A stretch of 64,000 nt of DNA from a virus, in the UHGV virus genome UHGV-1353844; one strand, given 5' to 3'. The translations under genes and the position numbers were made by a program. The stretch's first letter is position 1; every line of letters begins with the position of its first letter. The notes under the pieces are model-generated. The model searched no databases. It was not told where the DNA came from and worked only from the letters and a program-made list of their open reading frames with translations. This document shows positions 1 through 55,385 of the stretch, one piece after another.

Positions 1-558
1 GTCGATTTTCGCACTGTAGAACGTTGCATCTTTCATAAAGCTCGCCATTTCTCGTTGTGCTGCCCGAGACTTGCTTTTAATCCTGGCGTGTGCACCACTT
101 TCACCCCAGTGATAAGCCAATGCAATTTCTGCAATAGTGGGCTTGCGTTTGAGTCGTTTAGTCAACCCCTTTTCTAAATGTTTAACGTAGACGGAAGCCA
201 ATAGCACCGCATTACGAGGATTGTACAAATCCGCATTGCGACTAAGTCCGATTTCGGCACCGTAGAGTTTTAGCAAATTGCGCTTTGTGCTCGGTAGCAT
301 CTGAACCAGACTGTGCGCTTTAGACGTTCGATTATACGCCTTCGGATTAAACCGTGACTCTCGATAGATTAGCGTGGTCATCAAATTAGGATCGACACCC
401 TGCTTTCGAGAGATTTCCACAATCAACGGTTTTACCCGTTCGAAACGGTCTTGAATCATTTCGAATTCACGATGGTGTTTGGCATTGGGCGCGGATTTGG
501 ATGCGTATGCGTTAAACGCGAAAAGTGTTACCAGTAAAAGAAAGAAAATACGAAACAT
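1..558 (-). CDS. secreted lytic transglycosylase (SLT domain); 3' end truncated by window edge
   Basis: ATG at 558 preceded by GGAG; N-terminal signal peptide MFRIFFLLLVTLFAFNAYA; SLT-like catalytic region RESRFNPKAYNRTSKAHSLVQMLPS (E-S...NP...LxQM). ORF runs off position 1. Not in supplied ORF track because partial. Confidence 0.55.
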   Translation of the reverse strand, partial: MFRIFFLLLVTLFAFNAYASKSAPNAKHHREFEMIQDRFERVKPLIVEISRKQGVDPNLMTTLIYRESRFNPKAYNRTSKAHSLVQMLPSTKRNLLKLYGAEIGLSRNADLYNPRNAVLLASVYVKHLEKGLTKRLKRKPTIAEIALAYHWGESGAHARIKSKSRAAQREMASFMKDATFYSAKID

Positions 559-658
559 ACTAGTTCTCCAGTTGGATTTATACATTTCCGTGTTCCGTAG
601 AACGAAATCACGGCGCGGACAGCTGGAACTCCTTTGTTGTGTGCCCTAATGATAATAT

Positions 659-2661: not shown

Positions 2662-2862
2662 TCATGACTTCCCTCCAACACACCGCCACTCACATTCGCG
2701 TTGGTGCCAAATTGAACCCCAGGCGAGTCTAATCGCGTACGCTAAGACCACCCATAAAATCGCCGTTATACAAAATAGCACGTACAGAATGGCAACCAGC
2801 ACCATGACGCTAAACCCTAAAACGCTTAGTAACTGACGCCACCAATCAGTTTGCGTAGACAA
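2662..2862 (-). CDS. small membrane protein
   Basis: 66 aa with long hydrophobic stretches; overlaps end of upstream ATPase gene by 17 nt; stop overlaps ATG of a further 36-aa hydrophobic ORF (2555..2665) in ATGA arrangement. Confidence 0.35.
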   Translation of the reverse strand: MSTQTDWWRQLLSVLGFSVMVLVAILYVLFCITAILWVVLAYAIRLAWGSIWHQRECEWRCVGGKS

Positions 2863-5350
2863 TTTTTACTCCTTCGTTGTAAACCGCAGGCAGTGTTACG
2901 CCTTCAGGTTCAATAACACAGTATGCGGCTTCGTTAAGTTTTGAATGAATTTCTGCTTCGTGAGATACCACCAGTAACTGAGAGAACTCACCGGAATTCG
3001 CCAGGGTTTTAATAAACCCGACAAGATTATTTCGGTGTTCCTCATCCATCCCTTCTGACGGTTCATCCAACAGTAGCGGATACTGATGAAGTTTCAGGGC
3101 TTTGTAAGCGGTTAAACGAAACATCAAATTAAAGATGGCCCGCTGCGCTTTCGACCCTTTCCGCACGTCAGGTACCGGTTCAGGATGAGTTTTCAACTGC
3201 ACTGGGAACGTGTAGTCTAAGTCACCGTCGGTTAAGTCACACGGCATGACCCGCATAGGGTAGGTCCAGACTTGTTCGATATATCGCGTCATTAATTCTG
3301 TGATTCTCACGATAGCGTTGTAGAAGTATTTGCGTAATACCCCTTTCTCGGGCGAGAACGCTTGAATCATCAGCTTGTTATTAAATTGCTGCGCTTGTAA
3401 ATCCGATAACTCCTTTTCTAACGCAGTAAGTTGGTTGAGTTCGTTTTCCATCTGACGGTACCTTTCCCGTGCTGTGGTGAACGCATCCAACTTGTTTTCT
3501 CGGGCGTTTAATAACGTTTCGACCACCGTGTTGGTTAATGTTACCTTAACGTCGTTCTCTAAACGCTCAAAAACCGCATTAAAATTGTCTACAGTGACTT
3601 TAAGTTCGTTTAGATAACAAAAGGTATCATTAGCAACTGCGTGCTCTCTACGGCGCTCTGAGAGCGTTTCTGTTGCCTTACCCAAACGTTCCTGCTGGAA
3701 GGCAATTTTCTGCTGTAGTGCACCGTCAACGTTACCTACCGCTGCAACCGCATTTTCCCACTCTTTTTCCGCTTTAGCAAAACGCTGTTTCGTTTCGTGG
3801 TACTCAATTGCGGAATAAAGTTCACGATCGAACTCTGCGCACAGACTGCCAAACTGACTGCGGTTATCCGTAAAGACATTCCGCTCCTGGAGACGTTTAA
3901 AGAACAAACTCAATACCGGGTCTTTCGAGTATGTTAAAACGATTTCCCGTACTTGACGCATGTAATTAACGTCCGACTCTAATTCCGTACGGTCTCGCAA
4001 TACGGAATCAAGTTGAGTCTGTAACGTATTACGTTGCTCCATTTGTCCACGAATGGCTTCTTCCAATTCAGGCAAAGAACGACGGACACCCGGACGGAAT
4101 TTAAATTGACACTGCGGACAATCAACCTCGGCGGTTTCCAAATAGTGATTCCGTTCGTGGTTGAGATTCTGCAATACATTTTCAACACGCTGTAACCTGT
4201 CACGCAACCCAGATGAGTTTTGGTCTAAGGTCAACAGTTTCTCTTCCAGTACGTTCAACCGCTCCGTTGACTTAATAGCATCCAGTGTTGTTCCTAAACG
4301 TTGTCCCCAGACACGCGCATCGGTTGCTGCTTTAAGCTGGTCGATGTTAACGGTCTCTGCAAACAGTTCAGGGAAAAGGTGCTCAGTGTCCCACTGCTTT
4401 ATTAACTCGCGTAGTTTCGCAACCGTGTTTTTTAACCCCTCGTGATTCCGCATCAGGTAATCTTGGCGAGTGGACTCGTCCATCAACAAAGACAAATCTT
4501 TGTTTAGCATGGATAGTTCTGTTTCAGCAGAGACCACCGCTTCACGGGCAGTGGCTTCAATCCGTCGTGCTTCCTCTACTTGTTCTTCCGTAGGTAATCC
4601 GCCACGGTGTTCCAAGATAGCATTAATCGGTGCTTCGATTTTAAGCAATAGCGATTGAATCGTTGCCACCGTAACGTCACGATTCAGACCAGGCAGTTGT
4701 TCAATCTGTTTGTTGAGTTCACGTAAATCCGCTTCTAACGCTTTTAACCGCGTTGCTAATTGCTGACGTTCCTCTTCGTTATCAATTACGCGGGTACGCA
4801 ACTCTGCAATCTTGCGGCTGGTGATTTCAATACCACCGTTTAGCATCGTCAGGTTTTTTCGTAAACGTTGATAAAAACCTAACGCGTAAGTTAAGTCTGA
4901 CGTACTTAAACGGTAGAACCACTTACGGCGCAGTTCCGTTCCTGCATCCGTTAAAAGCACTTCCCCGTTCAGTAACTCTTTAATCTCTTTTGTAATGCCC
5001 GTGATTTCTTCTACGCGAGAGTTATACACTTTCGCATTACCTTGCTCGACGATTTTGGTACCCGTCGTCAGGTTCTCGATATCGCAAACCAATGAGTTGC
5101 CTTTACGTGCAACCTTAAATTTGTAACGATGGTCGTTAACCAAACAGATATTGGTGTAAGAACCCCCGTCACGGAATTCGGATTTCGAAGGTGCGATAGG
5201 TAGAAACACGGACAGTAAGCTGGTCTTACCGCAGCCGTTACCACCGAGGATAATGGTGGTTGGGGAATGGATAGTAAAATCGAAGGTTTCGATTTCGTGT
5301 AACCCCATTCCGGTAAATCCTTTAAGTACAATACGTTCAACTTTTAACAT
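2846..5350 (-). CDS. SMC/Rad50(SbcC)-like ABC ATPase with central coiled coil
   Basis: Walker A GGNGCGKTS near N-terminus; long heptad-rich middle with CPQC (zinc-hook-like); C-terminal signature-like GSKAQRAIF, Walker B LLLDEP and H-loop SHE. Start moved to ATG at 5350 (GGAGG SD 5 nt upstream) rather than GTG at 5368. Confidence 0.6.
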   Translation of the reverse strand: MLKVERIVLKGFTGMGLHEIETFDFTIHSPTTIILGGNGCGKTSLLSVFLPIAPSKSEFRDGGSYTNICLVNDHRYKFKVARKGNSLVCDIENLTTGTKIVEQGNAKVYNSRVEEITGITKEIKELLNGEVLLTDAGTELRRKWFYRLSTSDLTYALGFYQRLRKNLTMLNGGIEITSRKIAELRTRVIDNEEERQQLATRLKALEADLRELNKQIEQLPGLNRDVTVATIQSLLLKIEAPINAILEHRGGLPTEEQVEEARRIEATAREAVVSAETELSMLNKDLSLLMDESTRQDYLMRNHEGLKNTVAKLRELIKQWDTEHLFPELFAETVNIDQLKAATDARVWGQRLGTTLDAIKSTERLNVLEEKLLTLDQNSSGLRDRLQRVENVLQNLNHERNHYLETAEVDCPQCQFKFRPGVRRSLPELEEAIRGQMEQRNTLQTQLDSVLRDRTELESDVNYMRQVREIVLTYSKDPVLSLFFKRLQERNVFTDNRSQFGSLCAEFDRELYSAIEYHETKQRFAKAEKEWENAVAAVGNVDGALQQKIAFQQERLGKATETLSERRREHAVANDTFCYLNELKVTVDNFNAVFERLENDVKVTLTNTVVETLLNARENKLDAFTTARERYRQMENELNQLTALEKELSDLQAQQFNNKLMIQAFSPEKGVLRKYFYNAIVRITELMTRYIEQVWTYPMRVMPCDLTDGDLDYTFPVQLKTHPEPVPDVRKGSKAQRAIFNLMFRLTAYKALKLHQYPLLLDEPSEGMDEEHRNNLVGFIKTLANSGEFSQLLVVSHEAEIHSKLNEAAYCVIEPEGVTLPAVYNEGVKIVYAN

Positions 5351-5380
5351 GTCCACCTCCATATTCACGGAGCGTGGTGT

Positions 5381-5434: not shown

Positions 5435-6043
5435 TTACGGCTGGTAGAGTTTGTAACCCATCTCCTGCCAGTTTTGGATATTTTTCGATTGCTCAACCCA
5501 AGCCTGGCCTGCATCTGACGCAACAACTTCCATCGTCAGTAAACAAATCAGATTGGTAACGGGAACACATTTCCCTGGTGTAACGTCATCCAAATACACC
5601 GGATACAGATATGGCGATTTGATGCTTTGGTACGGATAGGAATAATGTGTTCCTGCAACCCAACCTTCTTCCACTGGGCAGAGGTTAAAGGTACGCGTTT
5701 CTGGGATTTCCCCTTCAGAGATCCAATTTACAACGTCGGCCTTAATACGCCCGTTGTCGATGTAGTAGAACACAACACGTTGTGGGATACCTGCACCCCC
5801 GGTAGGGTCTATTGCTTCCAGCGCTTTAAACGGTGTGGTGTTCAACGTAGTACGGTTATCTAACGCGTACATTAGCTTTTCGTAAGCGGTTGGTGTTTTA
5901 CGTTCAAAATATGCTTTCAAACGCGGGTACGCTAAGAACCCTTCTACTTCTTCTTCCATCAAATCAATAAATAACGGAGAGTGTGGATTAGCTTCGTTTT
6001 GACGCATCGCTTCAATAAAACGAACCAAAGTAATTTCGTTCAT
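5435..6043 (-). CDS. hypothetical protein
   Basis: 202-aa ORF upstream of the ATPase, separated from it by a terminator-like hairpin; no metallophosphatase (Mre11/SbcD) motifs seen. Confidence 0.45.
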   Translation of the reverse strand: MNEITLVRFIEAMRQNEANPHSPLFIDLMEEEVEGFLAYPRLKAYFERKTPTAYEKLMYALDNRTTLNTTPFKALEAIDPTGGAGIPQRVVFYYIDNGRIKADVVNWISEGEIPETRTFNLCPVEEGWVAGTHYSYPYQSIKSPYLYPVYLDDVTPGKCVPVTNLICLLTMEVVASDAGQAWVEQSKNIQNWQEMGYKLYQP

Positions 6044-6060
6044 GTTTCAGTTTCCTTGGG

Positions 6061-6089
6061 CAAAAAAGAAGCCCCGTACACAGCGGGGC
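6061..6089 (-). terminator. rho-independent terminator (minus strand)
   Basis: GCCCCG-TACACAG-CGGGGC hairpin followed on minus strand by TTCTTTTTTG. Confidence 0.5.
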
Positions 6090-6097
6090 CGGGCTAA

Positions 6098-6574
6098 TCA
6101 CAGCCCTAAGTGCGTGAGTGATAAGATAGGCTGTGAGACACCCTGGATAGTAGCGTGGGAACGATACATTTCAGCGTTGGTTGAGAATACCTCGTTAGCG
6201 ATAATGCATTCACCCGTCTCTAAAGATAGGAGATAAATGTAATCGCTCCATACGCTTTGTACCAAGACCCACTCTAAGGATGGACCACAGTCTGATGTTG
6301 CTTGCAAATAGTGGAAATAAGGACGTATCGCATCCACCGCCGCATTAAAGCGACGATGATAAATTCGAGTTAAGTCAAACGACCAAATTGTTTCCAGATC
6401 AATAGGGCGTAAAGTACGCACGGTTTTGATAATAGTTTCCTGGTCGTTGTGTCGTGCTGCATCAGCAATCAATAACAGTTTCCAAGCCACCGTTAAGTTG
6501 TGGCGAATATACTCAGGCTTAGCCGTCAGTTCGTGATGGAATTGGGCCGCTTGATAAACATTAGATAAACGCAT
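6098..6574 (-). CDS. hypothetical protein
   Basis: 158-aa ORF flanked by hairpin terminators. Confidence 0.45.
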   Translation of the reverse strand: MRLSNVYQAAQFHHELTAKPEYIRHNLTVAWKLLLIADAARHNDQETIIKTVRTLRPIDLETIWSFDLTRIYHRRFNAAVDAIRPYFHYLQATSDCGPSLEWVLVQSVWSDYIYLLSLETGECIIANEVFSTNAEMYRSHATIQGVSQPILSLTHLGL

Positions 6575-6602
6575 TTTTAATTCTCCTTTAGGTAAAACAG
6601 GT

Positions 6603-6642
6603 CGTAAAAAGGACCCCGGACGAATCGGAACGAACCGGGGTC
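6603..6642 (-). terminator. terminator-like hairpin (minus strand)
   Basis: GACCCCGG…CCGGGGTC stem (15-nt loop) followed by CTTTTTAC. Confidence 0.4.
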
Positions 6643-6653
6643 AAGACTACACA

Positions 6654-7043
6654 TCAGTAATCTAATTCGATAGCGCCTAGCATCTCACCGCGTTCTTCGA
6701 TGACGATAAGATGACGGTCACGTGATTTGCTTTTCGCAAGCGTTAGTACAACTGTGGGGTCACACGTTTTGGTCGTTACAGGAAGCACCTCTTTTGCTAC
6801 AGCGTCAAGTACGAAATAATAACCCGCAGGGCAGGTTGTTCCGCCGTCTGCTTTTACGAGTATATAGCGTCCATCTGCGCCAACTTCTTGGCACTCGCCT
6901 GCATCGCCTTCGCAGACTTCAAAACCCGGTGGGTTGTAGTGATAGTCTGTGTTCGTTGCCGGGGTAAGTAATAAATCGTCGATGTGTGTAGAAGCCATAA
7001 CTCCGATTGAGAAAAACGCCAACAAAGCGCAGATAAGACGCAT
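6654..7043 (-). CDS. secreted small protein (signal peptide, Cys-containing)
   Basis: N-terminal signal peptide MRLICALLAFFSIGVMA; 6 Cys in mature part; member of 5-gene array of exported proteins. Confidence 0.5.
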   Translation of the reverse strand: MRLICALLAFFSIGVMASTHIDDLLLTPATNTDYHYNPPGFEVCEGDAGECQEVGADGRYILVKADGGTTCPAGYYFVLDAVAKEVLPVTTKTCDPTVVLTLAKSKSRDRHLIVIEERGEMLGAIELDY

Positions 7044-7053
7044 GGTTTACTCC

Positions 7054-7464
7054 TTAGATTTTAAGTTTGTCCTGAGCGACAACGATGGGTGCTCCAGAGG
7101 TGTCGATAACACCTACAGTCGGCACACCATTTTTGATTTTGAAGAACGGTTTGTTTTCGCCTGAACACAGTTGGTTGTCTTTGTATTCAATTTTCTGTGC
7201 TTTCCAAGTTTCCAGATTGAGCACCGACATAGGGCTGTCGTAGCACCAGGCACCGCCTTGCTCAACAACGAAAACATACCTGTTACCTTTGTATTCAAAC
7301 AAATTCTTTGTCTGGCAATACAGACCGTCAATTTCTGTGCAGTAGAATTCGTCGGTACTGTTGACGTATTTGATACCCGCCGGTAGTTTTACTGTTTTTG
7401 CTGCTACGTTAAGAGAGAACAGAACAGTTACAGCAACGAGTAAAGTTTTGATAAACGTTTTCAT
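7054..7464 (-). CDS. secreted small protein (signal peptide)
   Basis: Signal peptide MKTFIKTLLVAVTVLFSLNVAA; several Cys (FYCTEIDGLYC, WCYDSP). Confidence 0.5.
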   Translation of the reverse strand: MKTFIKTLLVAVTVLFSLNVAAKTVKLPAGIKYVNSTDEFYCTEIDGLYCQTKNLFEYKGNRYVFVVEQGGAWCYDSPMSVLNLETWKAQKIEYKDNQLCSGENKPFFKIKNGVPTVGVIDTSGAPIVVAQDKLKI

Positions 7465-7479
7465 GACAGACTCCTTAAA

Positions 7480-7962
7480 TTAGTTAACCGCAGCTACGTA
7501 TTTCTTAACCAGATAGGCGAATTCATTAACGCCGATATCGCCAAACCAAACCAGATAACCTGGGTCGACGTTGTAATAGTAACCTACTACGACATGGGTC
7601 TGAGGGTTATAAAGCGTCGTGATGTATTCCCAACCACAAGCATTGCTTTTGCAAGCGGTAGACTCAAGCCAGACTTTGCCGTTGATTTGCACGGGAATAA
7701 CATCGCCGCCAGGACCATTCATTACACCATCTTTACCGAATAATCCGTCTAGTCCGACCGGTTTCAACGCTTTATCGATTGCGGCTTTATAAGTCGCATC
7801 GTCAGTATAGAGTGTGTTGATATCAGGACACGCTCCAGGTTGTTCAGCCCAGGCTTCCGGGTTACAGCTAAGTGCTTGTTTTACGGTAGCCGCTTCTGCG
7901 TTAAAGGTAAAGCCTGTGAACAGAATAGCCACGAAGAACATCAGGGTATGTAAACGTTTCAT
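7480..7962 (-). CDS. secreted small protein (signal peptide)
   Basis: Signal peptide MKRLHTLMFFVAILFTGFTFNAEA. Confidence 0.5.
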   Translation of the reverse strand: MKRLHTLMFFVAILFTGFTFNAEAATVKQALSCNPEAWAEQPGACPDINTLYTDDATYKAAIDKALKPVGLDGLFGKDGVMNGPGGDVIPVQINGKVWLESTACKSNACGWEYITTLYNPQTHVVVGYYYNVDPGYLVWFGDIGVNEFAYLVKKYVAAVN

Positions 7963-7980
7963 TGTAAATTCTCCATTAAA

Positions 7981-8373
7981 TTATTCAGCGCTACGATTTA
8001 AAGTAATACGGCCAATCAGTTCTGCATTATGGAAGAAGTCCACAGCAGTATAGTTTCCGACCTCTAACGGATGAATACTGACCGACATGACTTTTGGTTG
8101 TTCGCAGGCGATATCCGTCAGACGTTGGTAGACTTGTGCACGGGTGTCGGCAATGAGTAATCCGGTACACGTTTCACCGCGTACTAAGCGATAAACTTGC
8201 AGTTTACCGAAACTGCGCATTAACGTAGGTGACTCGTCCGGGTTGATAATGGGTGAGTCAGGAGCCGGTTCGTAATGGCGGACGTCCGAATCGCCGAAAG
8301 CATAAGTGCCAGTAATACCGATTGCACAGAAAATAATGATGGTATAAAGTATAGTTCTGATATTCATTTTCAC
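7981..8373 (-). CDS. secreted small protein (signal peptide)
   Basis: Signal peptide MKMNIRTILYTIIIFCAIGITGTYA. Confidence 0.5.
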   Translation of the reverse strand: MKMNIRTILYTIIIFCAIGITGTYAFGDSDVRHYEPAPDSPIINPDESPTLMRSFGKLQVYRLVRGETCTGLLIADTRAQVYQRLTDIACEQPKVMSVSIHPLEVGNYTAVDFFHNAELIGRITLNRSAE

Positions 8374-8395
8374 GCACTCTAAAAAAGATTATTAG

Positions 8396-8857
8396 TTATT
8401 TGTTAGGACGGGTGTGTCCACAGTTCTGGAAGAAAGTTTCAGATAAACGATCGCCTTCTACGGTAAAGTTAGCGGCATCGTTACCATTGATACTCACACT
8501 GAAAGTTTTGGCATTACCGATAGCATTAACGAAAGCAACCCAAGCGAGTTCTGCTTTGTCACTACCGTCCACGGTAGGGATGTTATAGGTTTTGCCGTTT
8601 ACGACAATATCCATCGTGTTATCTTCAGCGTTAGTTGCACCTACGGGTTCCCCGTAATACCAAACCATCCGACCGTAAAATTTGCGATTCGCAGTTTCAG
8701 TGTCACAGTTGATAGACAGTCCGTTTCCGGCGGTGTCTTCGATTTCGTAAACTACCTGGCCAGGGTTTTGTATTTGTTCCCAGCTATTGATAGCGGCGTG
8801 TGCGCTATTGAGGCCGAAAGTTAAAATGGTTATTAAGAATGTGGTAAAGGTTTTCAT
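8396..8857 (-). CDS. secreted small protein (signal peptide)
   Basis: Start moved to ATG at 8857 (AAGGAG SD 8 nt upstream), giving signal peptide MKTFTTFLITILTFGLNSAHA; track ORF extended to 8899. Confidence 0.5.
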   Translation of the reverse strand: MKTFTTFLITILTFGLNSAHAAINSWEQIQNPGQVVYEIEDTAGNGLSINCDTETANRKFYGRMVWYYGEPVGATNAEDNTMDIVVNGKTYNIPTVDGSDKAELAWVAFVNAIGNAKTFSVSINGNDAANFTVEGDRLSETFFQNCGHTRPNK

Positions 8858-8903
8858 TGAAATGCTCCTTCGGGTTATGGGGAAGTTCCCACAAAACATG
8901 AAA

Positions 8904-9275
8904 TTAAATAACTGTGTTGGGGAATGCTTTAATCTGCGTATAGCTATCTCCGATACCTCTTATCATCTCCAGACGTTCTTCTGTAGAAAGGCTTTGGTTA
9001 ATGTCTTTGTCAAGATTGAACAGTGTCAAGAGTTTTGCAATTGCAACCGTCAGGTTGTCGGACAGCTGGTTGTTTTTACGCCATTCTTCGTTACGGAAAA
9101 TAGAGATAAGGTCTTTCACCTGGCCTTCAGCGTGTGGTTTGGCTAACTGCGCGTCACGCTGTTCGATAAGGTATGCTTCGTTGGCAAGTAAACGTTTCAG
9201 GTCTTCTGGGTTAGTGGCAGCGCGAGTAACGATCAGTAATACAACAAACGGGTCTTTGAACAATTCGCTTTTCAT
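8904..9275 (-). CDS. hypothetical protein
   Basis: 123 aa; preceded (in coding orientation) by terminator, conserved AT-rich motif, hairpin and AGGAG SD. Confidence 0.45.
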   Translation of the reverse strand: MKSELFKDPFVVLLIVTRAATNPEDLKRLLANEAYLIEQRDAQLAKPHAEGQVKDLISIFRNEEWRKNNQLSDNLTVAIAKLLTLFNLDKDINQSLSTEERLEMIRGIGDSYTQIKAFPNTVI

Positions 9276-9305
9276 CGTTAATACTCCTAAAATGGTTTTA
9301 GTTAA

Positions 9306-9347
9306 GTGAGAGCTTTTGTACTCTCACCTAAGTAATATATATCTGAG
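9306..9347. promoter_or_regulatory. conserved AT-rich motif (CTAAGTAATATATATCTGAG) with adjacent 7-bp-stem hairpin; promoter-like
   Basis: One of five copies; sits between a terminator and the SD of the gene starting at 9275. Confidence 0.45.
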
Positions 9348-9365
9348 ATTATTTTTAATGTTAGA

Positions 9366-9397
9366 GAACAAAAAAAAGGTGGGGTTTACACCCCACC
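9366..9397 (-). terminator. rho-independent terminator (minus strand)
   Basis: GGTGGGGT-TTAC-ACCCCACC hairpin followed on minus strand by T8. Confidence 0.65.
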
Positions 9398-9401
9398 GTT
9401 G

Positions 9402-9980
9402 TTAAACGTCGAATCGATACTGACGAGAATTGATTAAGAATTCTGTATTCAGTTCGATCCATTCGAGCAGGTCACCCAATTGTAAACGGCTTGGGTTTTC
9501 TATCTCGATAGTGGCAACCGGATAAGAGTTTACTAATTCCGTAATTGCCTCGATACCTTCTTGCGTTCCATCGTCTTCTAAGGTAATTATAAACGGCATA
9601 TCGGTACGCTCTGCGTTCGGGTTATACAGACTGACTTTCGTTGCCTGTACAAACGCCGAGTAATCGTCACGTATGATCCTAACGTCAGGCGATAACGTTA
9701 CCCAGAGGTGTTGTCCCGGTTGGAGTTTACGTTTTGCGTAGTTTAAGAACGGATTAGCCGGTAAGTTTTCCAAACCACTGCAAATGTTCCGTAAATGAAT
9801 TCCTCGCGGATCTTTATAGTCCACAGTGAAAATTCCTACCGGCTCACGGTCTGCCTGTTTTACCAGAAAGGCCAATACCGTGTCCGCTCTCTCTGGTAAG
9901 GAAAGCTCTATTCCCTCAAGCTCCCCATCGACGAGGTTTTCCAACCAAACGTCTTTTCTCATTTCTATTAATCGGTACAC
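9402..9980 (-). CDS. hypothetical protein
   Basis: 192-aa ORF followed by strong hairpin+T8 terminator. Confidence 0.45.
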   Translation of the reverse strand: MYRLIEMRKDVWLENLVDGELEGIELSLPERADTVLAFLVKQADREPVGIFTVDYKDPRGIHLRNICSGLENLPANPFLNYAKRKLQPGQHLWVTLSPDVRIIRDDYSAFVQATKVSLYNPNAERTDMPFIITLEDDGTQEGIEAITELVNSYPVATIEIENPSRLQLGDLLEWIELNTEFLINSRQYRFDV

Positions 9981-14123: not shown

Positions 14124-14333
14124 ATGGCTATTAAAGAATTCTCTTCTGCTGAACACATTCCTGAAGAGTTCAAGAAAATTGGTAACGTAAGCGCTTTCGG
14201 TGATACCGTAGACGACGTTACTGCTAAGCTGGCTGTCGAAGCTGAAAAGATCGGCGGTGAAGCGTTTAAAGTTATCGGTATTTCCGGTAACAACAAACTG
14301 CACGGTAACGCGATTGTCTACAAAAAAGACTAA
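14124..14333 (+). CDS. DUF1471 (YdgH/BhsA/YjfY-like) domain protein, no signal peptide
   Basis: 69 aa; resembles the enterobacterial BhsA/McbA small-protein family (…AKLAVEAEKIGGEAFKVIGISGNNKLHGNAIVYKK); own SD; flanked by hairpin terminators. Confidence 0.5.
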   Translation: MAIKEFSSAEHIPEEFKKIGNVSAFGDTVDDVTAKLAVEAEKIGGEAFKVIGISGNNKLHGNAIVYKKD

Positions 14334-37487: not shown

Positions 37488-37625
37488 CTTTTTACCTCGT
37501 AAGTGGTAGGGGTGGATTGCATAAGAATGTTATTTTAGACATTTCCTAAAATATAGATATGACGGTTGGCAGTAGGCGCTAACCTGAAAAAATTAATTTT
37601 TCTTAATTTTAATAAGGGTGAGATT

Positions 37626-38105
37626 ATGCTAAAACGCATTCTCGTGGTCGTTGCTTTTGTAATGACATTGGCAAGTTGTGCTATTCAGCCGAACGCAGAA
37701 GGTCAGTTCTCCACCGTACCTGTTGACCAACACGATATGGTCATTTACACCTGTACAGCTGCTTCTCAAGAATTCGACGATTTTAAACCGGTACCGTCTA
37801 GCCTAAAACTGATGCCCCTTTCGGTGTTAGTCATGGATACAGGGGCGAATTGGGTCGCTACATGGGACGAAGGTAAAATTGAATCTCCGCAACTTTATAA
37901 AGACCTGTTAGGCAAGGTGGACGGTAACTTAAACGTTGTTACCGGTGAGCGCTATTACCGTGTAAACGGGTTACTGTCGAAAACCCCAACGTTTGCGTAT
38001 TCTACCGTCAACTACAAAACGGGTGAAGGTAAAGGTGTAACGTTCTTCAGATGTCACGAAGGCAGCATTCCGGATACCGGCACTATGTTGCACCCGGTAG
38101 AATAA
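37626..38105 (+). CDS. lipoprotein (signal peptide with lipobox L-A-S-C)
   Basis: ATG at 37626 with AAGGGTGAG SD; MLKRILVVVAFVMTLASC…; only plus-strand gene in a minus-strand region; own terminator. Confidence 0.55.
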   Translation: MLKRILVVVAFVMTLASCAIQPNAEGQFSTVPVDQHDMVIYTCTAASQEFDDFKPVPSSLKLMPLSVLVMDTGANWVATWDEGKIESPQLYKDLLGKVDGNLNVVTGERYYRVNGLLSKTPTFAYSTVNYKTGEGKGVTFFRCHEGSIPDTGTMLHPVE

Positions 38106-45096: not shown

Positions 45097-45138
45097 GTGA
45101 GAGTAGCTGAACTCTCACCTAGGTAATATATATCTGAA
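45097..45138. promoter_or_regulatory. conserved AT-rich motif (CTAGGTAATATATATCTGAA) with adjacent hairpin; promoter-like
   Basis: ~80 bp here nearly identical to 9276..9347, including hairpin and leader CCATTTTAGGAG. Confidence 0.45.
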
Positions 45139-48711: not shown

Positions 48712-48757
48712 AGAGCGAATGTAAATTTCGCTCTCCCCTAGGTAATATATATCTGAG
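48712..48757. promoter_or_regulatory. conserved AT-rich motif (CTAGGTAATATATATCTGAG) with adjacent hairpin; promoter-like
   Basis: Immediately follows (minus orientation) the terminator at 48758..48801. Confidence 0.45.
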
Positions 48758-50136: not shown

Positions 50137-50919
50137 TTAAACACGTGAACCATATATTGCACCTACTGCGTCCCATCTTGGCGCATTACCTCTAACGGCT
50201 GCACCAGCGGCTCCGCCGTTATATTCTGTACCGTTACCATGAGTATTACATCTTCCTCCAGCAGCACCGACATTACCACCCGAACCGCCTGTATATGCAC
50301 TAAGAGACCCCTCACCAACAGATCCTCTACCAGGAGCGGAAATAGTACCAGCAGCTGCACCGGAACTCATATGTGAGGAAGACCCACCAGCACCGAATGG
50401 GCGACCACCGCCACCACCAAATATTAGTCTACCCCTGTTACCGCCGCCACCGCCGCCACCGCCTCCGGCAATAGCGCCACGGTTGGTTATACGCAGTCTG
50501 TTTCCTATTCCGTTCTGTATTGCGGTTCCACCTGCACCGCCTGGTGAGTTAGAACCGCCGTTGCCTCCTCTGCCGTATACTGTAACCCCAGGATTGATGA
50601 TGAGTGTAATATACGAATTTGGAAGATTGCTAGGGAATTCTAAACAAGGAACCCCGCTACTATAAGACACTAAATCCCCTGTAATGGTCACAACGACAGC
50701 ATTAGAGCCTATAGAACGTAAATAGTTAATAAGCGTATCTTTATTGTAATTGTGATTAGCCCCGATCGAATACTGAACCTCTTTTGATTTTCCCGCCAAT
50801 TGCGACATCCAGCCTGGAACCGGCACACCAAGTGTGCGCATCGCGCCAGACATCCAATCGTTACCAGTTTCAGCTTTTGCTGAAGAACCAATCCAACCAC
50901 CTACGCCGACAACTGCCAT
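50137..50919 (-). CDS. gp38-like tail-fibre adhesin (T2-type, glycine-rich motifs)
   Basis: N-terminus MAVVGVGGWIGSSAKAETGNDWMS… and poly-Gly tracts (GGGGGGGGGN, GGGGGRPFGAGGSS) typical of T2/T6-type gp38; immediately downstream of the long tail fibre gene (TAATG overlap). Confidence 0.55.
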   Translation of the reverse strand: MAVVGVGGWIGSSAKAETGNDWMSGAMRTLGVPVPGWMSQLAGKSKEVQYSIGANHNYNKDTLINYLRSIGSNAVVVTITGDLVSYSSGVPCLEFPSNLPNSYITLIINPGVTVYGRGGNGGSNSPGGAGGTAIQNGIGNRLRITNRGAIAGGGGGGGGGNRGRLIFGGGGGRPFGAGGSSSHMSSGAAAGTISAPGRGSVGEGSLSAYTGGSGGNVGAAGGRCNTHGNGTEYNGGAAGAAVRGNAPRWDAVGAIYGSRV

Positions 50920-53900
50920 TAGGATCTTCCTTTAATTTCGTTAACCTCTTGACGCAACGCTTTCATACCCTCTACTAACAGCGCAATAACGCCATTGTAG
51001 TTTAGACGTAAACGTTTTTCGCCTGAAATGGCATCATCATCCTCAGACACAAGTTCAGGTAACGCTTCTAATGCGTCTTGAGCAATTAGACCTACCGAAG
51101 TGTTCCAACCGTCGTCTGGATGTTGAACCTCGTACAGATAGCCGGTAAGCGCTTCTAACCGATCCAAAGCCTTATCCAGCTTCACCAGATTACGTTTGTT
51201 GCGACGGTCAGAACGAATCTGTACGTCGTTAAACGAACCGTTACCGTTGCTAGAAATGTTATGACCAAAGGTTACTTGACCGTTAGAGTTATTAAAATAC
51301 AACGGACGTAGTCCGTTCCAGGAACCCGTTGCGGCTTGTCCGGAGTCGGTTACTAAGAAATAGGTATTGGCACCATCATTACGTAAAATGAAACCGCAGC
51401 TACCGTAAGCGATTCGGAAATCAGCATACTTCGTAACCAGTTTACCGTTAACCGTTAAATCGCCAGTGACAGTACCGCCGCTGTTCTTCAAAAACAGCGC
51501 ATCAATCCAGCCTGCAAATCCTGACTTATTGATGTATAAATTTCCATCATTTGCCAGAATGCCGCCACCCGGCGTCTTGAGAGGCTGACTCACATTTTGC
51601 AGCGTCAGCACACCATTCAATTGACCGCCAGATAATGGCAACGCCCCAACATCCGCAGCAGTTGGCTTGTTTTTCGTATTGTAAGCGCGACGCCAACCTG
51701 GTGAGTAAGCATCACCGTTATTTACGTAGATAAACTCCGCATTAGTGAGTGCGCCGCCGACGCTCGTCGTTGTGGGGGTCGTTATACGGATCGTGTAGTT
51801 GTTTGCGCTGTTACTAATCACTTCTATAACAGCCCCAGCTAACGGAATAACACCACAACCCGTCTCGCTGTTCGGTATGGACGCACTAGCAGCATAAGCC
51901 CATGCACAGCGAGCAACCCATGATTTTGTGGTAAACGCGCCGTTATTTTGCAATAACGTCACTAGCTGTGCTGTAGTTATTGCGCCGCCGTCTTTACCAG
52001 TCTCCAACCAACCAGTGGGCGAAGCCGGACAACCTATATCGGCAGGCCCTAACGATATATTTCTAGTACCGTCAAATGCGATACCGTTAATGGTACGCGC
52101 TGTCTGCAACTTTGTTGCCGTGGCTGCGTTTCCGGTAGTCGACTGATTACCCGTCTGGTTTACACCGGGCAGACTAATGTCTTGCGAACCGTCAAAGTTA
52201 ACACCGCCGATCTTACGTGCTGTTTGTAACTTAGTAGCGGTCGCTGCATTACCTGTCGTATTCTGGTTGCCTTGCTGGTTAACCCCCGGTAAATTGATAT
52301 CCCCAGTACCGTCAAAGGTAACGCCGCCGATTCTGCGAGCGGTTTTCAGTTTCGTCGCGGTAGCGGCATTGCCAGTAGTATCCTGATTACCGGTGGTATT
52401 TACACCAGGAATACTGTCACGGGCAGTATAAACTTGTGCCCAATCTGACCACGGCGCATCAGCCGTATCGCGTCGACTACGAATATAAACGGGTGCGTGT
52501 GCACCACTCGTGCCCGACCAACCAATTAACAACTCACCTTCGCCTAGCGCATTAGCACCACCTAAGTGCAGCAAGTTACCATAGGCGGTTGGATAACCGT
52601 TATTGTAAACTTCGTACATCTGGATACCAGGTGTACCCTTGTTCGACCCGGTCAGAGCGGTAACCCGTCCACGACCTACCAAGGTGTTGATATTGATGTC
52701 TCCAGAGCCATCGAATTTCACACCGTTAATATTTCTGGCGGTTTGAAGTTTAGTGGCTGTCGCGGCGTTACCTGTGGTGTTTTGATTACCTTGTTGGTTA
52801 ACACCTGGGAGGTTAACGTCGCCGCTGCCGTCGAAAGCGACCCCGCCAATTCTACGCGCAGTCTGGAGCTTAGTGGCGGTTGAAGCATTGCCGGTTAACT
52901 CACCTGCTAACCCTTTTGCAAAGGTCTGTTTCTCTGCCCAAGTGTGGGCTGCGTTCAACACAGGCATCTGTCGTGGCGTAATCGTACGGCTACCCTTCTC
53001 GCCAGCGATACGTACTGCAAAGAAGCGATAGTTAGCAGTAGACACTGTACCGCGCCAGACCAACATACTCCGACCAGTACCGGTGTCCTCTGACGCCCCT
53101 ACGAGAATACTGACCAAGTTACCGTCAATAACACCCCAATCCATTCCCGCAGGAATGTTTTTCATGGTATTCAACGGTGTACTTATCATCTGGCCAGGAA
53201 CGAAATCGAAGGTTTGCCAGTCTAACGGATCGACCTTGGCAGCAACCCCACCGATCCCTAAAGCCAACGGGAGTGAATAGGATGTGAAAATCTCTCGCCA
53301 TTCGCTCCAGGCGTTTCCTGTACGAATTCGTTGGAACTTGCGACCTTTCGTAGTTGCGCCTGTACCGTATGTGGTATAATTTTGTTCAACGCCTGAACCG
53401 TCTAAGCGTAAGGTAACTTCGCAAACACCTAACAAGGTTGCGCCAGCAGAGTCTGTTAACGGACCGTCAGTAGCCTCACCGGTAACACTAAAACGACCAG
53501 GTTTAGTTAAGTCATTAAAGCTACCCTTATAGTAGGCACCGTCTACCTGATACCCAACTTGAATCCAATCTTCCCACTGTGGATTAGACGCATCCCAAGT
53601 CGCAGTCAACCCACGGACATACATCGTACCACGACGAGTGGTGTAACGTTGCATACGTCCGTAGAGACCACCTTCCATTACTTCTAATACACCTTGAGCA
53701 TTACCACCTTCTTCGGGATAATGACGATCGAACGTCGCAAGAGAAGAACTGGAGTTACGCCACTGACCCATGTGTTCAACACCACCTAAAGTGTTAAGGT
53801 CAATAGTGGTGGAGAGCGGACGGTTCGCGGTAGTTGTCATTCTCCAGGGCGACCAAGGGCCGTTAGTACCGTTCCAGGTTCCTGTTAAACGACGAGTATA

Positions 53901-55385
53901 GACGTTACCGTTACGTATGGTAAAACGTTGGCTTCCGCTGTAGTTACCTGCTTTGAATACCTCTAAGTAACCAACTGCATCGTCTTCCGGGAAGTTCTTT
54001 GCAATTGTTGCATTCGTAGACGTGGCTTTAGACCAGACACCCATAAACGCTTCGACTGGGCCGAAGGTGTTGATATCCGCATCTACTGCCATTTCCCCAT
54101 TAAACTTCAAATACGTCTCTGCTGACAACCCGATGTTCTTCGCGAAGGTGACTTTATCTGGAATATCGGCACCGTTAGAACTGCGTTGCATAGCACCCGC
54201 AGCTTTATCAACAGTGGTTTTCAAACCCAGGAAGTTAATGATATCTGCCGTCGACCCTTTCGCTAACAAATCACGCGCAGTCGAGGTGAAATCCGCTAAC
54301 CCTACCTGATTACTACCGGTAAAGTAAGGGAGTTTGTTTGCAGCGGTGGTGACTGCGGCAATCGCTGTCAGTAACGGACTTAACGGCTGTTTACCCGCGA
54401 GTTGGTTCGTCATCGTTGTCGCAAAGTTAGGATCGTTTCCTAACGCAGCTGCAATTTCTGATAACGTATCTAACGTCTCGGGTGAAGAGTCCACTAATTC
54501 AGCAATCGCTTGCCGTACCCATGCGGTCGTTGAGACGCTCGTGTCGTTAGAATCCGAAGCAGGTGTTGGTGCTTTTACCACACCGGTAAAAGTTGGGTTG
54601 TGACGGTTTGCTTTTAACTGCAAATCTTCATTTAACTGCTTAACCGTTGACGGCGTAGCCGCTTCAGTAACAGAGTCACTGCTTAAGGTATTATTAAGTC
54701 TAACGATACCTTTACTGGTCGTTGTTGCATCAACGTTACCTTTTGCAGCGATTTCTTCTGCACGCTTAGCCGCTGCCTCAGAACGCGTTGCCGCATTCTC
54801 TGCGGTTTCTTTGTCTGTGGTAACTTGCGTTGCTGTAGCTTCTACAGCGGCTTTTGACGACTCTACCGACGCGACAGCTTCGTTAACTGCCGTAAGCGAC
54901 TGTTCGACTTGACCGGCTTGTGTGGCAACAGTTTCTGCTTTCTTCGTAACGGTAGTCACCGCTTGTGTGACGTTGGCCTCGCTTGCCGCTACCGCTTGCG
55001 CTTTCTCATTAACGGACACAACCTGGGTATCTACCGCCGTTTTCGCGGCTAACACTTCAGTGTGTTTTGTACCGACTTCAGTTGCTTTTTCGGTTACAGT
55101 TTGCGCTTGTTGAGCAACTGTAGCCGCAACGGTGTCAGTTTGTTGTTTTGCTGTTTCTGCTAAATTCTTTGCTTGTGTAGCCTGAGTTGCAGCTTCTTGT
55201 GATTGTGTTGCTGCTGTTTGTGCATCAGACACCGCATTACGTACGGTGTCAATATCTGCAACGATCTCACGGACAGGTAACTTATAATCTTTCTCATCCT
55301 TGGAAAAAAGTAAAACACCTTCACCTATATCCCCGGTGTATGGACGTAAATCGTGTAAACGAATTTTCTTTACCGCTTTAGCCAT
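50919..55385 (-). CDS. long tail fibre protein with C-terminal intramolecular chaperone (peptidase S74) domain
   Basis: 1488 aa: N-terminal anchor, Ala/Thr/Gln-rich coiled coil, six Phage_fiber_2-type repeats (TGNAATATKLQTAR-I-G--FDGS), C-terminal SDRRNKRNL…GLIAQDALEALPELV matching auto-cleaving chaperone domain. Confidence 0.75.
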   Translation of the reverse strand: MAKAVKKIRLHDLRPYTGDIGEGVLLFSKDEKDYKLPVREIVADIDTVRNAVSDAQTAATQSQEAATQATQAKNLAETAKQQTDTVAATVAQQAQTVTEKATEVGTKHTEVLAAKTAVDTQVVSVNEKAQAVAASEANVTQAVTTVTKKAETVATQAGQVEQSLTAVNEAVASVESSKAAVEATATQVTTDKETAENAATRSEAAAKRAEEIAAKGNVDATTTSKGIVRLNNTLSSDSVTEAATPSTVKQLNEDLQLKANRHNPTFTGVVKAPTPASDSNDTSVSTTAWVRQAIAELVDSSPETLDTLSEIAAALGNDPNFATTMTNQLAGKQPLSPLLTAIAAVTTAANKLPYFTGSNQVGLADFTSTARDLLAKGSTADIINFLGLKTTVDKAAGAMQRSSNGADIPDKVTFAKNIGLSAETYLKFNGEMAVDADINTFGPVEAFMGVWSKATSTNATIAKNFPEDDAVGYLEVFKAGNYSGSQRFTIRNGNVYTRRLTGTWNGTNGPWSPWRMTTTANRPLSTTIDLNTLGGVEHMGQWRNSSSSLATFDRHYPEEGGNAQGVLEVMEGGLYGRMQRYTTRRGTMYVRGLTATWDASNPQWEDWIQVGYQVDGAYYKGSFNDLTKPGRFSVTGEATDGPLTDSAGATLLGVCEVTLRLDGSGVEQNYTTYGTGATTKGRKFQRIRTGNAWSEWREIFTSYSLPLALGIGGVAAKVDPLDWQTFDFVPGQMISTPLNTMKNIPAGMDWGVIDGNLVSILVGASEDTGTGRSMLVWRGTVSTANYRFFAVRIAGEKGSRTITPRQMPVLNAAHTWAEKQTFAKGLAGELTGNASTATKLQTARRIGGVAFDGSGDVNLPGVNQQGNQNTTGNAATATKLQTARNINGVKFDGSGDININTLVGRGRVTALTGSNKGTPGIQMYEVYNNGYPTAYGNLLHLGGANALGEGELLIGWSGTSGAHAPVYIRSRRDTADAPWSDWAQVYTARDSIPGVNTTGNQDTTGNAATATKLKTARRIGGVTFDGTGDINLPGVNQQGNQNTTGNAATATKLQTARKIGGVNFDGSQDISLPGVNQTGNQSTTGNAATATKLQTARTINGIAFDGTRNISLGPADIGCPASPTGWLETGKDGGAITTAQLVTLLQNNGAFTTKSWVARCAWAYAASASIPNSETGCGVIPLAGAVIEVISNSANNYTIRITTPTTTSVGGALTNAEFIYVNNGDAYSPGWRRAYNTKNKPTAADVGALPLSGGQLNGVLTLQNVSQPLKTPGGGILANDGNLYINKSGFAGWIDALFLKNSGGTVTGDLTVNGKLVTKYADFRIAYGSCGFILRNDGANTYFLVTDSGQAATGSWNGLRPLYFNNSNGQVTFGHNISSNGNGSFNDVQIRSDRRNKRNLVKLDKALDRLEALTGYLYEVQHPDDGWNTSVGLIAQDALEALPELVSEDDDAISGEKRLRLNYNGVIALLVEGMKALRQEVNEIKGRS

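Follow-up and report, generated by a model that had tools for sequence, protein, structure and literature searches.

What function could five adjacent genes for small, apparently secreted proteins serve in the genome of a phage? The question is raised by positions 6654-8857 of a 64,000-nucleotide (nt) stretch of the UHGV virus genome UHGV-1353844 (the whole stretch is referred to below as the window), in which a first-pass annotation had described five consecutive minus-strand genes of 129-160 amino acids (aa), each beginning with a Sec-type signal peptide and several encoding paired cysteines, and had proposed a periplasm-targeted accessory island. Open reading frame (ORF) coordinates and translations placed five adjacent minus-strand ORFs of these lengths at that location, named P1 to P5 in order of position (Table 1). 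What was computed directly comprises the structure of the genes, their signal-peptide features, the assignments to families, the shared gene neighbourhoods and a promoter-like element. From protein-level searches and gene order the window was placed in the SPN3US (Seoulvirus) lineage of jumbo phages, with genomes of ~240 kb; that of this enterobacterial phage is ~220 kb.

P3 reads as a divergent member of the Ivy family of lysozyme inhibitors, P5 as a YfjT/YkfB-family protein, and P1, P2 and probably P4 as one superfamily. These family assignments, together with the operon and export architecture, are held with high confidence. The function that we favour, an early module of periplasmic inhibitors that would exclude later phages, is put at a probability of about 0.45.

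Family assignments of the five products

The placing of P3 in the Ivy family, in the broad sense, was made through a bridging protein, since a Klebsiella plasmid protein of 312 aa, which bears the annotation 'Ivy family c-type lysozyme inhibitor', was matched by tblastn (E=2e-16), aligned with P3 at 33% identity over 131 residues (BLASTP E=9e-24) and cleared the Pfam Ivy gathering threshold (23.9 bits against 21). The same Pfam model weakly matched six of the eight P3-family members. The segment C104-KSNA-C109 of P3 aligned in register with the CKPHDC loop of the Ivy structures 1gpq and 1xs0, and both loop cysteines were invariant or nearly so across the P3 family. Structure prediction and a fold search, which the first-pass annotation had proposed, returned for P3 an Ivy-type fold at the level of a model, with a five-stranded antiparallel sheet packed by helices; its listing of a lysozyme inhibitor among the candidates likewise gained support from the sequence-based assignment of P3. 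The match of P3 to a beta-mannanase (3vup, E=0.002-0.009) was discarded once the fold search had pointed to Ivy. P3 had no tblastn match in 50,697 phage records, and its model had none in the BFVD viral structure library.

Compared with Ivy itself (E. coli YkfE; PDB 1GPQ, 1XS0, 1UUZ), P3 carries the loop CKSNAC in place of CKPHDC and has an additional N-terminal disulfide and additional helices; Ivy is a housekeeping periplasmic protein, whereas proteins of the P3 type come from the genome of a lytic jumbo phage and from CP4-like islands. The loop varied among family members, being CKSNAC in the window, CKSDAC in the near-identical sequence L054 (described below), CKANAC, CKANTC or CKAHAC in E. 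coli and CEQGNC in Klebsiella. When codons 104-109 of P3 (window 7636-7653) were compared with the gene at L054 4001-4483, N was found against D at the fourth loop residue in proteins that are 97% identical, and E. coli members had N or H there. Since this is the position of the His by which Ivy binds the active site, selection exerted by the target enzyme could lie behind the differences.

One probable relative has a reported phenotype. Knock-down of the Ivy-like Hypo_04657 of E. coli O121 (loop CKANTC) by CRISPR interference raised the plating efficiency of phage T7, and its authors propose that the protein inhibits a phage lysozyme (bioRxiv 10.1101/2024.04.20.590424). Because CKANTC is identical to the loop of the E. 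coli P3-family members P0007, P0009 and P0015, Hypo_04657 probably belongs to the P3 family. T7 lysozyme is an amidase, and the T7 internal virion protein gp16 has a transglycosylase domain that is used during entry; this domain would be a more natural target than T7 lysozyme.

By BLASTP, 133 aa of P5 aligned with YfjT of E. coli K-12 (E=2e-14), and PF27224 (YfjT) was recorded on all close homologues and orthologues of P5 (precomputed matches, E<=1e-5). Across P5, YfjT, YkfB and two paralogues from phages, W26, C51, W106, F109 and C146 did not vary (alignment A9), and P5 has its signal peptide, its Cys pair and two Trp residues in common with the YfjT family, to which it is assigned on these sequence features. 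No tblastn match to P5 was found in the 50,697 phage records. The YfjT profile also hit the first strands of antibody V domains (E=0.015-0.2, near the conserved '...TINC' Cys), which was judged to be chance, although it could hint at an Ig-like sandwich in the YfjT family.

The mature regions, which had been called unrelated, proved in part to be kin. P1 and P2 aligned with hhalign at E=1.7e-5 and are paralogues; by the same program SPN3US gp181 is related to P1 (E=1e-7) and to P2 (E=3e-9). P4 aligned with the P1/P2 group at E=2.7e-4 (probability 41%, 79 columns) with both conserved Cys in register, cross-matched the PHROG family of P1 in a PHROG search, and is probably a divergent member of the same superfamily. 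The core of the predicted P1 structure is a seven-stranded beta-meander. A profile search of 1.84 billion representative proteins returned only 33 relatives of the P1 superfamily, all of them small signal-peptide proteins with the exception of three giant proteins, whose short repeated matches were regarded as spurious. Searches of Pfam, NCBIfam, PADLOC and PDB sequences gave no match for P1, P2, P4 or P5. Other lysozyme inhibitors of the periplasm (MliC/PliC, PliI and PliG) are likewise small beta-proteins that bear a signal peptide or a lipobox, a general description that also fits P1, P2 and P4.

A more distant link leads from this superfamily to YfjS/YafY. None of 24 superfamily members, P1, P2 and P4 included, matched Pfam PF20494 (YfjS_YafY) at E<=1, a model that K-12 YfjS matches at 1.4e-68. 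Profile comparison by hhalign gave probabilities of 63% (E=7e-5) and 86% (E=5e-6) over ~60 columns; a C-terminal beta-core, C-x-G-YY-h-h-D ... C, with both Cys, would be common to P1, P2, P4 and YfjS/YafY; and the superfamily hidden Markov model (HMM; A7) matched every YfjS at E=1e-6 to 2.5e-4, with no false matches among the ORFs of 25 loci. Homology of the P1 superfamily to YfjS/YafY is considered likely, as a remote and not proven relationship. YfjS and YafY carry a lipobox and are lipoproteins of the inner membrane, whereas P1, P2 and P4 have predicted signal-peptidase-I sites and none of the three has an L-x-x-C lipobox at the end of the h-region.

Kindred gene neighbourhoods in bacterial islands

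In E. coli K-12, CP4-57 has yfjT next after the lipoprotein gene yfjS, and CP4-6 has ykfB next after yafY. When one genome per species was scanned, 25 YfjT loci came to light in Enterobacterales, with a YfjS/YafY gene directly upstream in 18. The adjacency of P4 and P5 in the phage mirrors the YfjS-YfjT and YafY-YkfB pairs, both of unknown function, from which the phage differs in having three or four paralogues and an Ivy-like gene. In a Mixta tenebrionis island, a 153-aa gp181-type protein (E=2.5e-25, superfamily HMM) is encoded between YfjS (or a YfjR-like regulator) and YfjT, and a superfamily protein is likewise found between them in a Citrobacter island (E=3e-14).

The nearest cellular homologues of P3 (63-76% identity) are chromosomal 'hypothetical proteins', present in 138 of the 5,426 complete E. 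coli genomes. Their genes lie in this same type of island, with those for a dynamin-like GTPase, YjcZ and patatin on one flank and those for DUF932, antirestriction, RadC, DUF987 and CbeA proteins on the other; the Klebsiella Ivy-family gene follows those of a YfjP-like GTPase and a WYL regulator. All three families of the phage array are thus assigned, on sequence and gene order, to the periplasmic-protein cluster of CP4-57-type elements.

A further secreted protein, of 180 aa, is encoded 5' of the E. coli Ivy-like gene. It resembles P1 to the eye, and kinship was unsupported by hhalign (E=0.015-0.07); its family has no member in the window. Members of 190-217 aa occur in Mixta, Enterobacter and Pectobacterium islands, where the family is uncharacterised and belongs to the same island cluster. 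The E. coli gene models P0004, P0007, P0009 and P0015 (223-227 aa; L003 7098-7640) fuse the N-terminus of the 180-aa protein to the Ivy-like ORF; the latter's own signal peptide is internal in these fusions, which are likely annotation or frameshift artefacts.

Export signals, transcription unit and variability of the array

Signal peptides were called over the 72 ORFs of the window by a simple in-house rule, not a dedicated predictor. The N-termini of P1 to P5 each have a basic n-region, then an uncharged hydrophobic core of 11-16 residues, then an AxA-type site, in agreement with the signal peptides first described; the predicted cleavage sites are VMA/S, VAA/K, AEA/A, TYA/F and AHA/A (slash, point of cleavage), and no second hydrophobic segment was found in any of the five. 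The hydrophobic N-terminus of P4 could instead be a signal anchor. The rule flagged 8 of the 72 ORFs, five of which are P1 to P5; a run of at least five among the 72 ORFs has a chance probability of p = 2.7e-4. The pairing of cysteines noted at first pass extends to every mature part, with an even count in each (4, 4, 4, 2 and 2), as expected of proteins oxidised in the periplasm. The ratio of nonsynonymous to synonymous substitution rates (dN/dS), computed against orthologues in two related phage contigs, was 0.02-0.22 for all five, which are therefore real genes.

Strong ribosome-binding sites were found on four of the five genes, and the spacers within the array are 10-22 nt. The P5 start at 8857 is preceded by GAAGGAG, whereas the ATG at 8899 in the longer frame has no ribosome-binding site; P4 orthologues use an ATG two codons downstream of the GTG, which gives 128 aa (7981-8367). 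With these short spacers, a terminator before and after, and a 26-nt promoter-like element at its head (Table 1), the array is read from the sequence as one operon.

Table 1. Positions of the array genes and of the flanking features in the window
Feature	Position	Strand	Description
P1	6654-7043	minus	129 aa; predicted exported small beta-protein; 4 mature Cys; orthologue SPN3US gp183
P2	7054-7464	minus	136 aa; predicted exported small beta-protein; 4 mature Cys; orthologue SPN3US gp182
P3	7480-7962	minus	160 aa; predicted exported divergent Ivy-family protein; signal peptide 24 aa; two disulfide pairs
P4	7981-8373	minus	130 aa from GTG; predicted exported small beta-protein; 2 mature Cys; orthologue SPN3US gp180
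P5	8396-8857	minus	153 aa; predicted exported YfjT/YkfB-family protein; signal peptide 21 aa; conserved Cys51-Cys146 pair
123-aa ORF	8904-9275	minus	no signal peptide; phrog_27024, unknown function; first gene of the operon in this phage only
26-nt promoter-like element	9321-9346	minus	TCAGATATATATTACTTAGGTGAGAG; heads the operon
Intrinsic terminator	9378-9397	minus	GGTGGGGTgtaaACCCCACC then T8; 8-bp stem, 6 GC pairs; ends the upstream operon (gene 9402-9980)
158-aa ORF	6098-6574	minus	no signal peptide; SPN3US gp184 orthologue; probably final gene of the transcription unit
Intrinsic terminator	6070-6090	minus	GGCCCCGctgtgtaCGGGGCT then T run; after the 158-aa ORF

The 26-mer TCAGATATATATTACCTAGGTGAGAG occurs in the window in three copies with at most one mismatch (9321-9346, 45112-45137 and 48731-48756, all on the minus strand), each intergenic, on the coding strand and upstream of minus-strand genes, with 0 copies expected by chance. 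The bare octamer TATATTAC was not enriched in the window (4 observed, 2.4 expected), and only the extended 26-mer was significant. In SPN3US, pEa_SNUABM_29, L011 and L054 the element likewise stands immediately before the gene that opens the array; it is 83-97% identical in many SPN3US-like phages despite dissimilar flanking DNA, and accounts for the sole nucleotide similarity of 6000-9400 to other SPN3US-like phages. In jumbo phages that encode RNA polymerases, conserved AT-rich motifs found bioinformatically were early promoters of the virion RNA polymerase in every tested case, whereas middle and late promoters cannot be found in this way (PMC7598289). The 26-mer is probably the early (virion RNA polymerase) promoter of the lineage, and, as it heads the array, the array would be an early operon.

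The content of the array varies between related phages. SPN3US and pEa_SNUABM_29 carry four superfamily members in its place, gp180-gp181-gp182-gp183, and have neither an Ivy-like nor a YfjT gene; in the window the order is P4-P3-P2-P1, with the Ivy-like gene occupying the place of gp181, plus one YfjT gene. Among related contigs, YfjT genes are absent from L007-L010 and present as two in tandem in L011-L013. The segment 8871-9319 (the 123-aa ORF and its leader) is missing from the near-identical L054 and from L011-L013, and the sequences point to a small indel hotspot just behind the promoter element; in L054 this element directly precedes P5, and in L011-L013 a second YfjT paralogue stands at that position. 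The locus is a site at which jumbo phages of the nucleus-forming type take up host-island genes: the number of YfjT genes is 0, 1 or 2 according to the phage, and one further gene is of either the Ivy-like or the gp181 type.

Metagenomic contigs of 220-228 kb also bear the array. In nucleotide searches of 6000-9400 against phage records only a 40-60 bp intergenic element matched, and no isolated phage was close. L054 (NZ_CP134650.1) is a circular record of 222,441 bp, filed as the non-mobilizable 'plasmid unnamed1' of Enterobacter ludwigii 51A:C, a gull isolate. It is 95-97% identical to the window over 4.3 kb, with matching phage gene content, and is evidently the jumbo-phage genome of a sister phage, not a plasmid; it points to Enterobacter as a host, and the phage may have been in a carrier or pseudolysogenic state in that isolate. 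The Salmonella enterica assembly GCA_008966875.1 likewise includes a related phage as a contig of 223 kb (L012).

Beyond the array, the SMC-like gene at 2846-5368 is the counterpart of SPN3US gp186, and a 202-aa ORF that of gp185. Between the SMC-like gene and an SLT-domain gene at 1-585 lie minus-strand genes for a GNAT acetyltransferase (1900-2343; Pfam E=2e-8) and a weak Macro domain (659-1183; E=6e-4, below the cut-off). The SLT-domain protein (minus strand, C-terminus beyond the window edge) has a strongly hydrophobic signal peptide, MYKSNWRTSMFRIFFLLLVTLFAFNAYA, with cleavage before S, and from this sequence the endolysin of the lineage appears to be Sec-exported or membrane-anchored. 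On the plus strand, 14124-14333 encodes a 69-aa ORF without signal peptide, whose orthologue in L011 and L012 carries the Pfam mark YdgH_BhsA-like (DUF1471), a family made up of small stress proteins of the periplasm; 37566-38105 has, from an internal Met, a lipoprotein-type signal peptide with the lipobox MLKRILVVVAFVMTLAS before C and no Pfam match, and could encode a spanin component or other envelope protein. The minus-strand gene at 50919-55385 encodes a 1488-aa tail-fibre protein that combines a trimerisation domain of the T4 gp34 type with an S74 intramolecular chaperone domain at its C-terminus.

A possible periplasmic inhibitor module and its rivals

In the explanation that we favour, an operon of an SPN3US-related jumbo phage, probably transcribed early, would have its products exported by Sec, cut by signal peptidase I and disulfide-bonded in the periplasm, where the mature proteins would act as small binding or inhibitor proteins. 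P3, the only one of the five with a mechanistic precedent, would act as Ivy does on lysozyme, by plugging the active-site cleft of a peptidoglycan glycosidase with its disulfide-closed loop CKSNAC. Because the loop is without the His of Ivy, the target is likely a phage or bacterial enzyme, either lysozyme-like or a lytic transglycosylase, rather than a vertebrate c-type lysozyme; Ivy itself is active against lytic transglycosylases of bacteria as well (Clarke et al. 2010, cited in PMC3660660). P1, P2 and P4, with a beta-domain like that of gp181/YfjS, and P5, of the YfjT family, would be further periplasmic binders with other targets. The role of the module would be to neutralise cell-wall-cutting enzymes that reach the periplasm of the infected cell, above all the entry enzymes of later phages, and the outcome would be superinfection or competitor exclusion. 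The working analogy for P3 is T4 Spackle (sp, gp61.3), encoded by an early phage gene with a signal peptide, which in the periplasm blocks the tail lysozyme gp5 and thereby excludes superinfecting phages (PMC7677548); similarity to Spackle in sequence or fold was looked for and not found. The idea first proposed, an accessory island aimed at the periplasm, gains support from the Ivy-family assignment of P3 and from the occurrence of the array as a conserved, variable cassette in SPN3US-like phages, while its specific function, like export, early timing, inhibition and the role in exclusion, is inferred.

Several observations weigh against this explanation. P3 lies below the cut-offs of both Ivy models, with E=0.025 and 15.2 bits against 21 for Pfam Ivy (PF08816), and E=5e-4 and 19.8 bits against 180 for NCBIfam Ivy (NF007443); its predicted structure has a mean confidence (pLDDT, predicted local distance difference test) of 67.7, with the loop region below 50. 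The loop is without the His that in Ivy contacts the lysozyme active site, and Abergel et al. in 2007 reportedly found that Ivy paralogues without CKPHDC fail to inhibit hen lysozyme. Hypo_04657 is counted in the P3 family on its loop motif and fold rather than on sequence. The motif is the sole indication of early timing. SPN3US is without P3 and P5, so that whatever the two proteins do is dispensable for the lineage.

Inhibitors of wall-cutting enzymes could also serve the phage's own lysis, with P3, and perhaps the other products, restraining an exported SLT-type endolysin until lysis or sensing superinfection like T4 RI. The signal-peptide SLT-domain protein at window 1-585 is only 6 kb away (Pfam SLT E=2e-14), its orthologues in SPN3US-like phages are annotated putative endolysin or transglycosylase, and lytic transglycosylases are among the enzymes that Ivy inhibits. 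This account is nevertheless judged unlikely: the same SLT enzyme is kept in SPN3US and >100 relatives without an Ivy-like gene and so does not need P3, the operon has an early-type promoter element whereas endolysins act late, and for the homologues in E. coli islands there is no endolysin to restrain. Equally improbable in our estimate is an immunity-like protection against type VI peptidoglycan-degrading effectors, bacteriocins or animal lysozyme in the gut, which would let the infected cell survive the long jumbo-phage cycle or a carrier state. Tandem periplasmic signal-peptide arrays with paralogue expansion do resemble orphan immunity-gene arrays, classical Ivy protects against lysozyme, and the circular 222-kb 'plasmid' of E. 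ludwigii hints at persistence in cells; yet no known immunity family was matched in Pfam, NCBIfam or PDB searches, the P3 loop is without the residues used against c-type lysozyme, and the single reported phenotype of a probable P3 homologue concerns phage T7.

A shade less probable again is manipulation of the host envelope, in which the products would bind stress sensors, autolysins or the lipoprotein-trafficking machinery and remodel the wall or stress responses for phage production. YafY, the YfjS paralogue, is one of only two E. coli lipoproteins that activate Cpx when overproduced, although its deletion gave no phenotype (PMC6538781); Ivy has been proposed to control host autolytic transglycosylases (PMC3660660). 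The remote similarity of the P1 superfamily to YfjS/YafY (hhalign probability 63-86%) would favour such a role, but the link is weak, there being no PF20494 match, P1, P2 and P4 are not lipoproteins, and the variation in gene content between close phages would be left unexplained. That the genes are non-functional, as chance ORFs or as hydrophobic N-termini without export, seems scarcely credible: the signal peptides were called by a simple rule, but the low dN/dS values, orthologues across SPN3US-like phages, ribosome-binding sites, even Cys counts, the improbable run of five and membership in families of signal-peptide proteins all speak for functional genes.

Wall-enzyme inhibitors are known from bacteria (Ivy, PliC and others) and in one phage case, T4 Spackle; Ivy, Spackle and the yfj/ykf genes were each already known separately. 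An Ivy-family gene in a phage, together with a YfjS-like and YfjT-like array shared with CP4-type islands, was not found described in the sources searched, and two broad jumbo-phage reviews made no mention of exported or periplasmic proteins. The favoured early inhibitor module can be carried one step further, in a conjecture that is rather doubtful: the YfjS-like, YfjT-like and Ivy-like families might form a mobile periplasmic 'anti-entry' toolkit, with each family neutralising a different class of envelope-breaching enzyme of incoming phages. The array in any case provides a concrete hypothesis, cheap to test, for yfjS, yfjT, yafY, ykfB and the Ivy-like gene, namely possible periplasmic action against incoming phages or other wall-attacking agents. 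If the conjecture is true, the toolkit would be exchanged between islands, where it would serve host defence, and lytic jumbo phages, where it would serve superinfection or competitor exclusion; a function would be at hand for yfjS, yfjT, yafY and ykfB of E. coli K-12, and phage defence would include a layer in the periplasm that current catalogues lack.

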